DNA of 64,000 nucleotides from the NCBI GenBank assembly GCA_964558645.1, contig CAZLEV010000001.1, forward strand, positions 93,568-157,567, read 5' to 3'. The position numbers and the translations under genes were made by a program. This stretch comes from an uncultured archaeon (GTDB lineage: Archaea > Asgardarchaeota > Thorarchaeia > Thorarchaeales > Thorarchaeaceae). How positions within the stretch are numbered: the first letter of the stretch is position 1; the number at the start of each line of letters is the position of its first letter. The notes under the pieces were generated by a model. That model did no database searches and was not told the DNA's origin. It saw only the letters and a program-made list of their open reading frames with translations. This document shows positions 17,867 through 44,724 of the stretch, in pieces.

Positions 17867-18035
17867 CCTGCGTTTTGTAGGTGCTCTTGCTCGATTCTGT
17901 GATTCTTCAATTAAGCCTTATCTTGAGGGCGGAATCTCTTCGGAGTCAGCTCGGTGTGGCCGAGAAATAGACCCAATACACTTTTCGACCAGTAGTACTT
18001 GGGTTAGACCACCTAACAAGAAGGAGATGGAATAA

Positions 18036-18326
18036 ATGGGAAGTAAACCACCGCTATACGAAAGAAGACTCCAGCTGAAGCACTTTTTTGATGATCGAAC
18101 CACCGGGCAGACCCGAAGAACGTGGCTCGAGCTTCAGCTTCAGCCGCCAGAGAAGAGCTCTGAGGGCTGGGTTAATGACGGCAGGATTCGCCTGAGTCTC
18201 GGAGAAGACCGCGATGTAAAGGGATCCTTCCTGCTATCAATAGAGGAGGCGTCTCGGATGTTCAAAGTACTTGAGATGATGTTTGAGGATCATGAGCACC
18301 AGAAGGCTGAACTCTGGAGAGAGTAG
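18036..18326 (+). CDS. Hypothetical protein (96 aa)
   Basis: GGAGATGG upstream; compact pattern of beta-strands plus a C-terminal helix. Confidence 0.75.
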   Translation: MGSKPPLYERRLQLKHFFDDRTTGQTRRTWLELQLQPPEKSSEGWVNDGRIRLSLGEDRDVKGSFLLSIEEASRMFKVLEMMFEDHEHQKAELWRE

Positions 18327-18440
18327 ATCTTCGCTGAAAAGAGCCCTAAACAACTGGTCACCAGCATCTTCTCGTCAAGACCGTTAATCAGGAATAGATT
18401 TATTCAATGATCTCAACTACTACTCCGAGGAGGAAACACC

Positions 18441-41037: not shown

Positions 41038-41919
41038 CTAGAACCTCATGGGCTCAGGCTTGTTGCCTGTGTAGTCATAGAAGCCCTTGCCGGCCTTTCT
41101 ACCAACCCACCCGGCCCTGACCATTTTTCTGAGCAGTGCGGGTGCGCGGTACTTCCCGTCCTTGAACTCCTCGACGAAATAGTCTGAGATATAGAGGAGG
41201 GTATCGAGACCAACAAAGTCTGCCAGCGTGAGCGGCCCCATGGGCCAGTTAAGACCTAGTTTGATAGCTAGGTCCATGTCTTCAACAGTAGCTACTCCTT
41301 CTTGGATGGCAAATATTGCCTCATTGATTGCGGGAACAAGAAGTCGGTTTACGGCAAACCCGGGTGCCTCGTTAACAAGTACAGTTTCTTTACCGATCTT
41401 CTTAGAGATCTCCTCAATCACCTTGACTGTTTCGTTGTCGGTTGCGGCGCCCTTGATAATCTCTACGAGCCCCATGACGGGTACTGGATTGAAGAAGTGC
41501 ATACCGATGAACTTCTCAGGTCTCTGTGTGACCGCTGCCATTTGTGTGATGCTGATGCTTGACGTGTTCGATGCGAAGATCGCATCCTTCGGAGCTAGTT
41601 CCTCCACCTCTCTCCATGTATCGAGTTTGAGCTTCACTATTTCGGGAATGGCCTCAATAACGAGGTCTGCATCTTTGACTGCTTTCTCAAGGTCGAGCAC
41701 ACCCTCAATTCTTCCCAGAGTAGCATCAACCTCCTCCTGAGTTATCCTGTCCTTCTTCAGACCTCTCTCCAAGTTCTTCTTGATGGTTTCGAGGCCTTTA
41801 TCGATGAATCTCTGCTCAATATCTCTCATCTTAACTTGATAGCCTGCTTGAGCACAGACATGGGCGATTCCATTGCCCATCTGTCCTGCTCCCAGCACTG
41901 CGATTCTCTTTACATCCAT
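41038..41919 (-). CDS. hbd: 3-hydroxybutyryl-/3-hydroxyacyl-CoA dehydrogenase
   Basis: GAGQMGNGIA, SNTSS, GMHFFNP, PMGPL; GGAGG SD before ATG 41919. Confidence 0.93.
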   Translation of the reverse strand: MDVKRIAVLGAGQMGNGIAHVCAQAGYQVKMRDIEQRFIDKGLETIKKNLERGLKKDRITQEEVDATLGRIEGVLDLEKAVKDADLVIEAIPEIVKLKLDTWREVEELAPKDAIFASNTSSISITQMAAVTQRPEKFIGMHFFNPVPVMGLVEIIKGAATDNETVKVIEEISKKIGKETVLVNEAPGFAVNRLLVPAINEAIFAIQEGVATVEDMDLAIKLGLNWPMGPLTLADFVGLDTLLYISDYFVEEFKDGKYRAPALLRKMVRAGWVGRKAGKGFYDYTGNKPEPMRF

Positions 41920-42092
41920 TGTGTGTTCCTCCAACTCATTGGTTGACTACATGTTGTCCGTTACGAGGGCCATAATATTTCTGTCTGTAGTCATGTTTTC
42001 TTTGAAATGGTATACATTTCAGTTTATGCAAGAAAACTTACGCCTACAAACATTTTGTTAAAAGCACTTAAATTAAAAGAACGGTTGGCATG

Positions 42093-42106
42093 GCAAACCT
42101 TTATAT
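42093..42106 (+). promoter_or_regulatory. Strong archaeal BRE/TATA promoter
   Basis: GCAAACCTTTATAT inside an AT-rich tract; implies a start site near 42123-42128. Confidence 0.65.
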
Positions 42107-42122
42107 GATTTCATTCTGTGGT

Positions 42123-42454
42123 GTGGGTGGCGCTCAATAGGTCAGGTCAATAGGCTGCGGTCGCAAGACCGTTCCTTCTGGCCGAAAACATAGATCTCTC
42201 ATCTCCTATAGTGCCAACGGGACCTCGCGTGCCGCTGGCACTCACGCAGGAGCAAATGGTCACATAATGTGACCCTATGATGCGACCCTGAAGTGTGGCT
42301 TCGCGTTATATAGTAGAGATGTCACTGAAAAGCCGGAGAAGTTCCAATGAGTCGGCACCAATCCCCGATGCACATAGCGTGTGGTCAGGAAGTGGTCAGG
42401 CAGTGTCCATTGAAGTGGTCACTTTCGCCCACCAATAGCATATGGCCTGACCAC
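42123..42454 (+). ncRNA. Unidentified large structured RNA or leader upstream of an MFS transporter
   Basis: No ORF of 60 aa or more. Helices: GCGGTC-GCAA-GACCGT, GTGCCA/TGGCAC, GGTCACA/TGTGACC, CATCTC-CTATA/TATAG-GAGATG, GTGGTCAGGC/GCCTGACCAC; also 5'-3' long-range complementarity. Confidence 0.6.
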
Positions 42455-42471
42455 CTATACGTCAAGATGAG

Positions 42472-43923
42472 ATGAACATCATGAGCAGGATTGTTGAGTT
42501 CTTTGGTCTGACTGACGGGAATGAGAAGGTACTGAGTCTAGCAAGGACTCTTGCAGTGTTGTTTCCCGTCGTGGCTCTGACAATCCAGCTGTCAACCACC
42601 TTCTTCATGATATTTGTTGCTGAGGCTGTGGGGCACGGTTCGTTCATCGAAGGTATGACGGTAGTAGGAGTTCTTGTAGTGATTCAGATGGCTGTTCAGA
42701 CCCTCTTGGACTATCCTACTGGAGCCATTGGGGATTGGATTGGTCAACGCTACATCATCACAGCAGCCTTCCTATCATTTTCGGCTGCCTTCCTGACGGT
42801 GTCATTTGTGGATTCCACGACCCCGATATACTTGCTGATACTCGTGTACGTACTACTTGGTTTTGCCACCTCACAGCTGAGTGGGGCATTCAATGCCTGG
42901 TTTGATAACAACTATCGAGTGGCGATGCCTGGAGACGGAGATCGGAAACAATATGGTGTCTTCATGGGCAAGATTGGCATGCTGTTCAGCCTGATAGGAA
43001 CGCTGTGCATGATTCCCGGCAGTATTCTAGCAGTCATTTTTGGACGTGCGTGGGTCTTTCAGCTCCAGGCCCTCATGTGTGCGGGCATCGCCCTAATCGT
43101 TATGCGGGTAGTCAGAGACTTTCCGGAAGTTGAAGAGGCAAGAGAGGCTCGACCCAGTCTTGGTCAATATACCTCTCTCCTGAAAGAGGGGATTGGTTTT
43201 CTCTTTAGTGATAGTTTTGTCACCTACCTCTTGCTAGGAGGATGCATTGTCATGAGCGTGGGTCTTGTCTGGGGTGAACTGCTCCTCTTTCCGATGTATT
43301 TCAGCTATCTTGTTGCCGAGGTCGCGGTTTCCAGCTTCAGGACTATCCTGTTCATTCCTGGGATATTCTGGCAAGAGCGTTCTGGTGTCTGGGCCAAGCG
43401 ATTTGAACCCGAGAAATGGATCCCACGTTTCAGATTGCTCCAGGGCACAGGCTTTGTCTTCTATCTGGCCTTTGCCGCCATCATGTACCTCTTTCCTCCA
43501 GCTGCCGGAGGTGCAATGATTGCCCTTTCAGTTCCTCTCACGCAGATTACACTTCTTGAGATTCCTGTCTCATCTATTCTTCCGATAACCCTTATGGCGA
43601 CGACCTTCACATTGACAGGAGTCTTTGGTGGGCTCTCACAGATTCTCACACAGCGAGTTCTCTTGGATGTGGTGCCGAACCGGATAAGGAATAGCATATA
43701 CTCTCTCTCTCCGACTATAGCCACAATCATAGCCATCCCTCAGATTGCAGTCTTTGGATGGCTCATTCCTCTTGCCGGATTCCCACTGACAATGGCATCC
43801 TGTGGACTGATCTCTCTCTTCGGGGTACTGATGATTCGAAAGGGTCTCAGCTACCCCAAGCCCACCCCCTCAGATGAGAGGGGTGAGGTTGTCACTATCC
43901 CTCCAACTGTCCCAGCTGAGTAG
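42472..43923 (+). CDS. MFS transporter
   Basis: ~12 TM helices; motif A variant DYPTGAIGDWIGQR. Confidence 0.85.
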   Translation: MNIMSRIVEFFGLTDGNEKVLSLARTLAVLFPVVALTIQLSTTFFMIFVAEAVGHGSFIEGMTVVGVLVVIQMAVQTLLDYPTGAIGDWIGQRYIITAAFLSFSAAFLTVSFVDSTTPIYLLILVYVLLGFATSQLSGAFNAWFDNNYRVAMPGDGDRKQYGVFMGKIGMLFSLIGTLCMIPGSILAVIFGRAWVFQLQALMCAGIALIVMRVVRDFPEVEEAREARPSLGQYTSLLKEGIGFLFSDSFVTYLLLGGCIVMSVGLVWGELLLFPMYFSYLVAEVAVSSFRTILFIPGIFWQERSGVWAKRFEPEKWIPRFRLLQGTGFVFYLAFAAIMYLFPPAAGGAMIALSVPLTQITLLEIPVSSILPITLMATTFTLTGVFGGLSQILTQRVLLDVVPNRIRNSIYSLSPTIATIIAIPQIAVFGWLIPLAGFPLTMASCGLISLFGVLMIRKGLSYPKPTPSDERGEVVTIPPTVPAE

Positions 43924-44067
43924 CTTTCTAGGCTGTCCTGCTCGAATGGGAGAGTATGTGTGCAACAAGGTTATTACGCAAGTTTTCATGAACCTGCATA
44001 GGTGTTACATTTGGCAGATAGACCAGTTTTCCTCACTGTTTCATACGGTGACTCAGGGCTCTCCACT

Positions 44068-44724
44068 ATGAAACATGAGCAGAAGATGATTCGAGAAGAT
44101 GACGTGAAATTTGATGGTGAAGACGGTATTCTAGAATGCACGGATGTGCGTCTTGTCTGGTACAAGAAACCGAGCCGATGGGGCGGTGTGAAAAAGTTCG
44201 GCGGTCTTGCTGGTGCAATAGCTGGGGCGGCCATTCTTGATGGAGTGGGTCGACAGATGGGTGGAATAGGCGGTCGGGCCGTCCGAGGAATAGGTCGCGG
44301 TATTGGTTATGCTGCCGTCGGAACGGCAATATCCTCCTGGACTCGCGACAGCTTCTACAATAAGGATAAAGATGGCAATACGGAGTCCATCGCCCTTCCT
44401 ATGATTGCCATTTCAAACATCGCACAGAGCGGCAAGAACCTAGTTGTCGAACTGAAATCTGGTGGCAACATGATATTCGAGTTCAAGCAGAAGAAAGTGA
44501 TTCCTAGCGTCCTTGCTAATGTCAAGCAAGCTCAGAACCAAGGCAAGTGCCCATTCTGCGGTGCGAATGCAGGAAACGCGGCAAAGTGCCCCAATTGCGG
44601 AGCTCCCATTGAAGGGAGCGGCGGAGGCGGAGCACCATCTGCGGGTGGGAAGTTCTGCACAAACTGCGGACAAGGAGTTCCTGCCGACGCCAAGTTCTGT
44701 GGCAAGTGTGGAAGCCCAGTCTAG
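44068..44724 (+). CDS. PH-like domain protein with a Gly-rich insert and C-terminal double zinc ribbons
   Basis: GILECTDVRLVW; Gly-zipper segment; CPFCG...CPNCG and CTNCG...CGKCG. Confidence 0.8.
   Translation: MKHEQKMIREDDVKFDGEDGILECTDVRLVWYKKPSRWGGVKKFGGLAGAIAGAAILDGVGRQMGGIGGRAVRGIGRGIGYAAVGTAISSWTRDSFYNKDKDGNTESIALPMIAISNIAQSGKNLVVELKSGGNMIFEFKQKKVIPSVLANVKQAQNQGKCPFCGANAGNAAKCPNCGAPIEGSGGGGAPSAGGKFCTNCGQGVPADAKFCGKCGSPV

Follow-up and report, generated by a model that had tools for sequence, protein, structure and literature searches.

The window analysed here is a stretch of 64,000 nt from an uncultured archaeon of the Thorarchaeaceae (contig CAZLEV010000001.1, positions 93,568 to 157,567), and all coordinates without a contig or locus name refer to it. 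Within the window we examined the gap that separates a - strand gene for 3-hydroxyacyl-CoA dehydrogenase (start 41922) from a + strand gene for an MFS_1 transporter, using for comparison a sister species of the same genus (G001) and two further strains (X3 and X4, with contigs ~97% identical). According to a crude map of open reading frames (ORFs), this gap of 537 nt is the second largest in the window after one of 574 nt at 17867-18440, and not the largest, as had been claimed in an earlier reading made from the letters alone (the sequence-only reading). That reading took 42093-42471 for one structured RNA of ~330 nt with switch-like repeats; what we find is a mosaic of two promoters, a repeat array and a leader of ~130 bases. 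On balance, the interval is probably a compound 5' control region of the Thorarchaeota MFS transporter gene, assembled from four layers. Features described below lie on the + strand, except for operators, half-sites and repeats, which are given without a strand. Public runs matching this DNA come from marine sediment, and among them no RNA run containing it was found.

The outermost layer would be a distal promoter, P1, in which a palindrome GTTGG-N5-CAAAC adjoins a TATA box. The palindrome (operator O1, GTTGG-CATGG-CAAAC, 42084-42098) overlaps the B recognition element (BRE) and is conserved in the sister species; the distal TATA box, CTTTATATG, follows at 42099-42107, and the usual archaeal TATA-to-start spacing would put the transcription start at ~42130. 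The BRE/TATA sequence GCAAACCTTTATAT, which the sequence-only reading had pointed out at 42093-42106, is indeed there. Despite diverged flanks, the block GCAAACCTTTATATGATTTCA shows no change relative to G001. The combination of GTT(T/G)G-N5-CAAAC and CTTTATATG is found 5' of MFS leaders or microprotein genes (see below) in 15 of 30 related loci from many genera, and another genus has the P1 TATA box too, at its syntenic 3HCDH-MFS locus (L020). P1 and the second predicted promoter, P2, each have a TATA box with an adjacent conserved upstream box, and both keep their position at orthologous or paralogous loci. A tandem GGTCAGGTCA at 42140-42149, about +10 to +20 of the inferred P1 start, supplies two of the eight GGTCA/TGACC copies of the interval, and GTCAGGTCA within it is conserved in the sister species. 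We note a second P1-class site in this genome (C2:356848-356918), located before another microprotein gene (MALAKNTRKES...).

Transcripts from P1 would begin with the second layer, a leader of ~130 nt with two hairpins that appear to have been kept by selection as + strand RNA and a CU-rich, anti-Shine-Dalgarno-like tract at the foot of the second. Hairpin A (42145-42183) has 14 bp in three stacked helices and a GCAA loop, on which the minimum free energy (MFE) and centroid structures agree. The CU-rich, anti-Shine-Dalgarno-like motif AGAUCUCUCAUCUCC (42192-42206) is identical in the sister species. Hairpin B (42203-42252) consists of an outer helix CUCCU/AGGAG (42203-42207/42248-42252) around an inner hairpin at 42210-42242, and both hairpins are found in the MFE as well as the centroid structure of 42125-42262. 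Over this segment, G001 differs by 19 substitutions (8 of them in paired columns), which break 0 of the 39 predicted pairs; random placement of 19 changes breaks 6.8 pairs on average, and zero pairs were broken in 5 of 100,000 trials (P ~5e-5). These structure-preserving substitutions, observed directly, include two compensatory pairs, G-C to U-A in hairpin A and U-A to G-C in the outer helix of hairpin B; hairpin A carries eight substitutions in all, with three one-sided changes that keep pairing through G-U, and the inner hairpin of B and its immediate flanks carry none. The + strand is favoured because the G-U pairs of the leader (four in each species) would be A-C on the other strand.

X3 and X4 show four changes within 42145-42252, all in loops or linkers, with 42224 and 42227 falling in the apical loop of hairpin B. 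The loop of hairpin A, GCAA in the window, is GUAA in the sister species and changes to CCAA in X3. The GNRA cap that the sequence-only reading had stressed is thus not strictly kept; the hairpin itself is present and maintained between the two species as a + strand structure. Searching 86 family genomes with a covariance model built on the leader (R2) gave two matches, one in this genome and one in G001, and in both the leader precedes the MFS gene. In divergence from G001, the leader (42125-42255) stands at 14%, as compared to 20-22% at third codon positions of the flanking genes and 16.5% in the spacer 41923-42092 between the dehydrogenase start and P1. From the predicted folds and their preservation, we regard it as well supported that 42125-42262 is a conserved structured + strand RNA element. 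Part of the CU-rich tract, UCAUCUC (42199-42205), is exactly complementary to GAGAUGA (42469-42475) before the transporter start. In the fold of the G001 leader the tract pairs with the start-codon region, and it also closes hairpin B locally; we hypothesize that it may mask or expose the ribosome-binding region.

The third layer would be a 136-nt promoter cassette (42256-42391) composed of an operator palindrome GTCACA-N3-TGTGAC, a third half-site and a BRE/TATA, to be read as the usual promoter of a lineage-specific family of microprotein operons. The orthologous locus of G001, with 89-91% identity, lacks exactly these 136 nt (BLAST and MAFFT alignment), and the cassette is ungapped in strains X3 and X4; its borders form an imperfect 12-nt direct repeat (AGCAAATGGTCA / AGGAAGTGGTCA). 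It contains the operator palindrome O2 (GTCACA-TAA-TGTGAC, 42259-42273), a degenerate third half-site GCGACCCT (42282-42289; consensus GTGACCCT by alignment with other modules), which decays further to GCGTCCCT in X3 and X4, and a conserved TGTGGCTTCGC box with the proximal TATA box P2, TTATATAG (42294-42313; inferred start ~42340). The box and TATA of P2 are invariant across modules and unchanged in X3/X4, and the TATA box lies ~33 nt 5' of the start codon in the modules. The modules share one layout with fixed spacing: GTCACA-N3-TGTGAC, 8 nt, GTGACCCT, 4 nt, TGTGGCTTCGC and a TTATATA box. We found that 42256-42312 recurs at two other loci of the same genome and at six loci in five other family genomes (74-86% identity), and that this genome has five full modules. 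Among 185,579 species genomes, the exact fixed-spacing pattern has 77 copies, nearly all in genomes labelled Thorarchaeota, and none outside Asgard-type metagenome-assembled genomes. These copy numbers, like the indel polymorphism between the two species, are direct observations.

At the 77 loci, microprotein genes follow the cassette, which lies upstream of their (inferred) transcription start. Of the other cassette loci, 75 are long enough to be judged, and 74 of these have an ATG 83-86 nt after the palindrome; at 72 of 77 cassette loci an ORF of 29-37 codons is opened that belongs to one family (consensus MALATNNR..K.N..ST.A..AY..(R/V)R). The codons of this family vary most at third positions (0.52, vs 0.39 and 0.40 at the other two), and all three stop codons are used. 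Because a conserved microprotein ORF follows at a fixed distance in 72 of those 75 loci, the cassette is better explained as a gene promoter than as a mobile unit. A miniature inverted-repeat transposable element (MITE) or dispersed repeat was considered for the cassette and rejected, its five genome copies being tied to ORFs at fixed distance; the dispersed copies that could have spoken against the sequence-only reading concern the cassette, and the leader is single-copy.

In the window, a 42-codon ORF (42347-42475) begins where the microprotein start codon of the modules sits (offset 88 here, 86 elsewhere). Its peptide is unlike the microprotein family, its codons shared with G001 show 1 synonymous and 3 non-synonymous changes, and its ending, MR-stop, arises from the Shine-Dalgarno-like GAGATGA itself; it is probably not a conserved protein. 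Translational coupling to the transporter through the ATGA overlap of this ORF was also rejected, the overlap being a by-product of the Shine-Dalgarno-like sequence and the start at 42481 being better supported.

The fourth layer would be an MFS-specific element of phased (G)TGGTCA(C/G) heptamers that ends ~14 nt 5' of the ribosome-binding site. This GGTCA-repeat element, E2 (42381-42455), keeps the same order in more than eight genera. Here it holds GTGGTCAGG twice, GTGGTCAC, CCCACCA, CATAT and an inverted CCTGACCAC; in other genera it holds two or three heptamers of the form (G)TGGTCA(C/G), spaced by 11-12 nt, then CCCAYCA, CATAT and an inverted GTGACCAG. Another 10-14 nt on, (A)TGAGGT(G/A)A follows in those genera, and 5-8 nt further a start codon, either that of the transporter or that of a 35-40-codon upstream ORF (uORF) overlapping the transporter start. 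Of the cassette loci, 19 have an MFS gene no more than 2.6 kb away, and E2 was found at 18 of these and at none of the other 58. With 6.7% divergence from G001, 42392-42480 is the most constrained non-coding segment, and E2 is unchanged in strain X3. The motif is strongly enriched by direct count: the 379 nt of the interval contain 8 copies of GGTCA/TGACC vs 0.98 expected, and 1 of 36,224 overlapping windows in the 3.6-Mb genome has at least 8.

Heptamers of the same orientation are spaced by 10-12 nt or about double that distance, both in this interval and in other genera. Two genera build the array mainly from opposite-orientation heptamers, again with 10-12-nt or doubled spacing. Among 23 sequences, no compensatory change was counted in the heptamer helices, whose 3' arm never varies; a 5' copy that deviates simply goes unpaired. 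The heptamer half-site also forms the operator 5' of the P2 TATA box, a position not transcribed from P2. Because of the helical phasing, the conservation of sequence and not of pairing, and the reuse in a non-transcribed position, we infer that the heptamers are putative sites of a sequence-specific regulator that would bind DNA rather than RNA. The switch-like repeats of the sequence-only reading, taken there for RNA helices, are sequence-conserved elements phased by ~11-12 nt, and the partners of its long-range pseudoknot are copies of one repeated GGTCA motif. The tandem GTGGTCAGG (42381-42389 and 42392-42400) and CCTGACCAC (42446-42454) from which it built these pairings are present.

Beyond E2 come a Shine-Dalgarno-like GAGATGA (42469-42475) and, by analogy with other genera, the MFS start (ATG 42481; the feature spans 42469-42483). 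The sequence-only reading had its alternative pairings end 17 nt before a start at 42472; since MFS orthologues align from residue 3-4 of the 42472 ORF and GAGATGA occupies the Shine-Dalgarno position of other genera, the start is probably ATG 42481 and not 42472. Orthologues or paralogues of the MFS protein are found in 68 of 81 family genomes, and NCBIfam gives no subfamily name for it. A metagenome scan with the protein returned 28 loci, none closer than 69% identity, and added no sequences for the genus-specific leader. The uORFs overlapping the MFS start in L014, L019, L021 and L026, in the final ~100-210 nt ahead of it, end in a common aromatic motif, (F/V)Y.Y(H/R)W(R/S)(L/V); an arrest-peptide role is conceivable. 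The gene after the MFS gene in the window (44002-44724) encodes a 240-aa protein with C-terminal zinc ribbons, a relative of which recurs 3' of the cassette in 7 related loci.

With the exact module pattern, we could also look at the genes in the neighborhood of the cassette loci. The microprotein operons are found in Thorarchaeota only (e.g. L003:1590-1918 (+) and L002:1180-1468 (-); in this genome C2:276587, C8:57087, C10:113003 and C26:7911) and have two or three tandem small ORFs after the operator/TATA cassette. One family, MAL(A/T)(T/I)NNR..K.N..ST.A..AY..(R/V)R-stop (27-37 aa), accounts for the first two of these ORFs, and the third ends in EVLALEAT; a protein-atlas search with the microprotein gave no usable match. 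Other recurrent neighbors include two MFS types, 3-hydroxyacyl-CoA dehydrogenase and unrelated genes. The MFS type of the window is found at 20 of 77 cassette loci, and at 13 of the 77 the microprotein genes are followed by another kind of transporter, with Pfam MFS_1 and MFS_3 matches (e.g. L167:1598-2773 (-)). The microproteins are thus repeatedly linked to MFS transporters, as two MFS types recur at cassette loci. A variant operator in this genome at C9:53665 (GTCACATCTTGTGACC, then GTGAATCC and TTTATATG) lies ~97 nt 5' of a 414-aa gene beginning MAEKQKFEKQER, and this locus may be a further member of the regulon.

Folding was compared with dinucleotide shuffles for the whole interval and for its parts. 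Taken whole (362 nt), it is more stably folded than its shuffles, with z -3.94 for the + strand and -2.55 for the - strand, but unevenly by segment: 42125-42262 reaches z -2.3 here and -3.55 in the sister-species copy; 42263-42386, a segment absent in the sister species, is at chance level (z +0.1); and 42376-42471 reaches z -3.5 here and -0.7 in the sister species. As for known families, Rfam covariance models find nothing at gathering thresholds in the 64-kb window, a permissive Rfam scan of 41900-42600 returned two chance-level matches far below threshold (E 3.6 and 6.9), Rfam has no match in 20 related loci, and ARAGORN finds no tRNA. RNase P, SRP and intron fragments were considered and rejected, no model matching. 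No known RNA family thus accounts for the interval, which agrees with the novelty proposed by the sequence-only reading.

That reading is, overall, partly supported. All the sequence features it named are present, among them CATCTCCTATA (42200-42210) and TATAG-TA-GAGATG (42309-42321), GTGCCA/TGGCAC and GGTCACA/TGTGACC. Its second domain, a multibranch unit, survives in the inner hairpin, which is maintained between the two species; the 3' strand of the unit is the cassette TATA box, so its closing helix uses that box and its downstream flank, in a cassette missing from the sister species, and the supposed GGTCACA/TGTGACC helix is the operator palindrome upstream of the TATA box. Its third domain (42332-42383) shows no folding beyond that of shuffles, and no other part evolves as fast in X3/X4; since 42329-42381 changes at ~3 times the local average in these strains, the domain is neither stable nor conserved. 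Comparison of homologues shows leader pairs kept in one sister species and heptamer helices without covariation.

In other genera of the family, the MFS orthologues are preceded by a different leader hairpin, which we call E3. It consists of AAAUCUCCUAUCUCC and a 13-bp hairpin, 100-150 nt 5' of the MFS orthologue and sometimes with an extra inserted hairpin. In an alignment of 30 sequences, which was fitted to covariance model R1, both partners vary in 11 of the 13 pairs and 98% of cells are paired, values that no shuffle reaches. Of 86 family genomes searched with model R1, 31 have the element, each in a single copy (25 of 28 in genus g6, 5 of 17 in g3 and 1 of 3 in g11); examples include L029:1300-1385 (+), L036:1279-1391 (+), L040:3031-3143 (-) and 27 further loci (L042-L071). 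E3 has no Rfam match. In genus g6 leaders, we also observed a conserved Cys-containing small ORF of 38-51 codons (...KPCLT.E(D/N)(K/R)(T/S)I.VQSFGALCNAG...) 5' of the E3 hairpin, at L037, L040, L036, L029 and L035, 228-390 nt before the MFS start.

The window leader and E3 share several properties: both precede the same orthologous gene and have a near-identical 15-nt CU-rich motif (AGAUCUCUCAUCUCC of the window matches 12 of 15 positions of AAAUCUCCUAUCUCC), followed by a hairpin of about equal size and, 7-8 nt beyond it, by GGAG. They differ in the sequence and loop of the hairpin, and the ACCGGAC motif upstream of E3 is missing here. With default filters, model R1 has no match in the window or its genome; with filters off, over 401 nt, it gives a full-length alignment at 42180-42259 with a weak score of 6.0 bits (E 0.074). 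Common descent of the two leaders is a lead suggested by their sequences, and not a result.

Several alternatives need to be weighed against a compound control region. The whole stretch from P1 to the start codon could be a riboswitch-like cis leader, with hairpins A and B as the aptamer, GGUCA repeats that gate the ribosome-binding site and the cassette as a tolerated insertion. The structure-preserving evolution of 42125-42262 fits this, as do the lack of an Rfam match and the 3' arm CCUGACCAC, which could pair with several of the 5' copies, in this interval over 9 bp without a mismatch. It would further agree with E2 ending 10-14 nt before the Shine-Dalgarno sequence in every genus and with the strong covariation of the orthologues' E3 hairpin (11 of 13 pairs) after a near-identical CU-rich motif. 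The heptamer helices do not follow, however: they lack covariation, their variant copies are uncompensated, and their phasing and half-site reuse in a non-transcribed operator point to DNA recognition. In the sister species the 3' module folds at chance (z -0.7), 136 nt can be inserted between 'aptamer' and 'platform', and hairpins limited to one genus give no aptamer consensus, which together make such a switch unlikely. A broader version, in which the MFS family is under RNA-level control, appears quite unlikely to us: genus-specific leaders (A/B here, E3 elsewhere) with a shared CU-rich tract would be riboswitch-like sensors, and an oligomeric RNA-binding protein, or else the co-transcribed basic microproteins, would recognize the phased GGUCAC repeats in the mRNA and gate translation.

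Hairpins A and B might also belong to a stand-alone non-coding RNA of ~120-130 nt made from P1 and ending before the cassette, with the transporter transcribed separately from P2 or from within E2. A strong and conserved predicted P1 followed by two stable conserved hairpins, and a second complete predicted promoter directly downstream in this genome, would suit such an RNA, but no oligo-T terminator is seen after hairpin B, the hairpins are single-copy and always beside the MFS gene, and in the sister species, with no cassette between hairpins and gene, they would belong to the mRNA; we consider this very improbable. The least probable, and to us barely credible, is a mobile-element or chance origin, with the repeats as MITE-like relics or the structure as a by-product of palindromic sites without RNA function. 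It is true that the cassette exists in several copies, is bordered by direct repeats and varies as an indel, and that palindromic protein-type sites supply part of the folding signal. Cassette loci nevertheless carry a conserved microprotein ORF at a fixed distance, the cassette has no terminal inverted repeats, the leader is single-copy, and 0 of 39 pairs broken over 19 substitutions is not a chance outcome.

Some observations weigh against the compound control region itself. The leader comparison involves two species and two near-identical strains, with the structure predicted from one of the compared sequences; a change at 42129 in X3 and another at 42258 in X4 each cost one pair in the weak flanking helices of 4 bp (42128-42144 and 42193-42261). 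A 7-nt anti-Shine-Dalgarno complement is expected by chance about once per 50 leaders of this length. E2 always has both heptamer orientations, inside the P1-transcribed region and just before the ribosome-binding site, and an RNA hairpin or a site for an RNA-binding protein fits these orientations and this position equally well; one E2 position pair (the base before TGG and the Y of CCCAYCA) shows weak covariation, which 6 of 500 shuffles reach. Finally, no recurrent regulator gene was found near the 77 cassette loci.

In the compound control region that we favor, the GGTCA heptamers would be read by a single sequence-specific regulator at three positions, just 3' of the inferred P1 start, 5' of P2 and in the array before the ribosome-binding site. 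Bound there, the regulator would couple transporter expression to the microprotein regulon. P1 transcripts alone would carry the structured leader in addition, in which the CU-rich tract can pair locally with the GGAG closing hairpin B, or else with the Shine-Dalgarno/start region of the transporter, and these alternative pairings would serve as a platform for turning translation on or off.

In archaea, BRE/TATA promoters are known whose palindromic operators bind repressors or activators, e.g. TrmB/TGM in Thermococcales, Phr and MDR1. The predicted promoters here resemble them in having a conserved box next to the TATA box, palindromes or repeats 5' of the TATA box or just 3' of the inferred start, and one promoter/operator cassette reused at several co-regulated loci; they differ in that the putative regulon combines microprotein operons with MFS transporters and is confined to Thorarchaeota-type genomes. 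We know of no regulator motif that matches GTCACA-N3-TGTGAC with GTGACCCT, phased TGGTCAC arrays or GTTTG-N5-CAAAC. Riboswitches and leaders that mask the Shine-Dalgarno sequence likewise have conserved hairpins in a long leader before a transporter gene and a tract (CU-rich here) that pairs locally or with the ribosome-binding region, whereas the leader here matches no Rfam family, has no multi-genus aptamer consensus and is separated from the ribosome-binding site by a whole promoter cassette. Like the leader peptides and uORFs of bacterial transporter or efflux genes, small ORFs lie between promoter and transporter, and in some genera a uORF overlaps the transporter start. Unlike them, the 42-codon ORF of the window is not conserved as a protein and its stop is a Shine-Dalgarno by-product, and the conserved microproteins are also found in operons without a transporter.

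To our knowledge, next to nothing is known about gene regulation in Asgard archaea, and we found no description of these elements in the full-text literature on Asgard/Thorarchaeota riboswitches or RNA motifs. The locus also calls for caution, as a long, well-folding intergenic region rich in inverted repeats need not be one RNA; the single-RNA reading misleads here because most of the apparent structure in the center and the 3' part stems from promoter and operator sequences. If the compound control region is real, Thorarchaeota would have a lineage-wide regulon of microprotein operons and two kinds of MFS transporters with a recognizable operator/promoter, and there would be a candidate binding motif for a regulator as well as two structured 5' leaders that could be probed in vitro.

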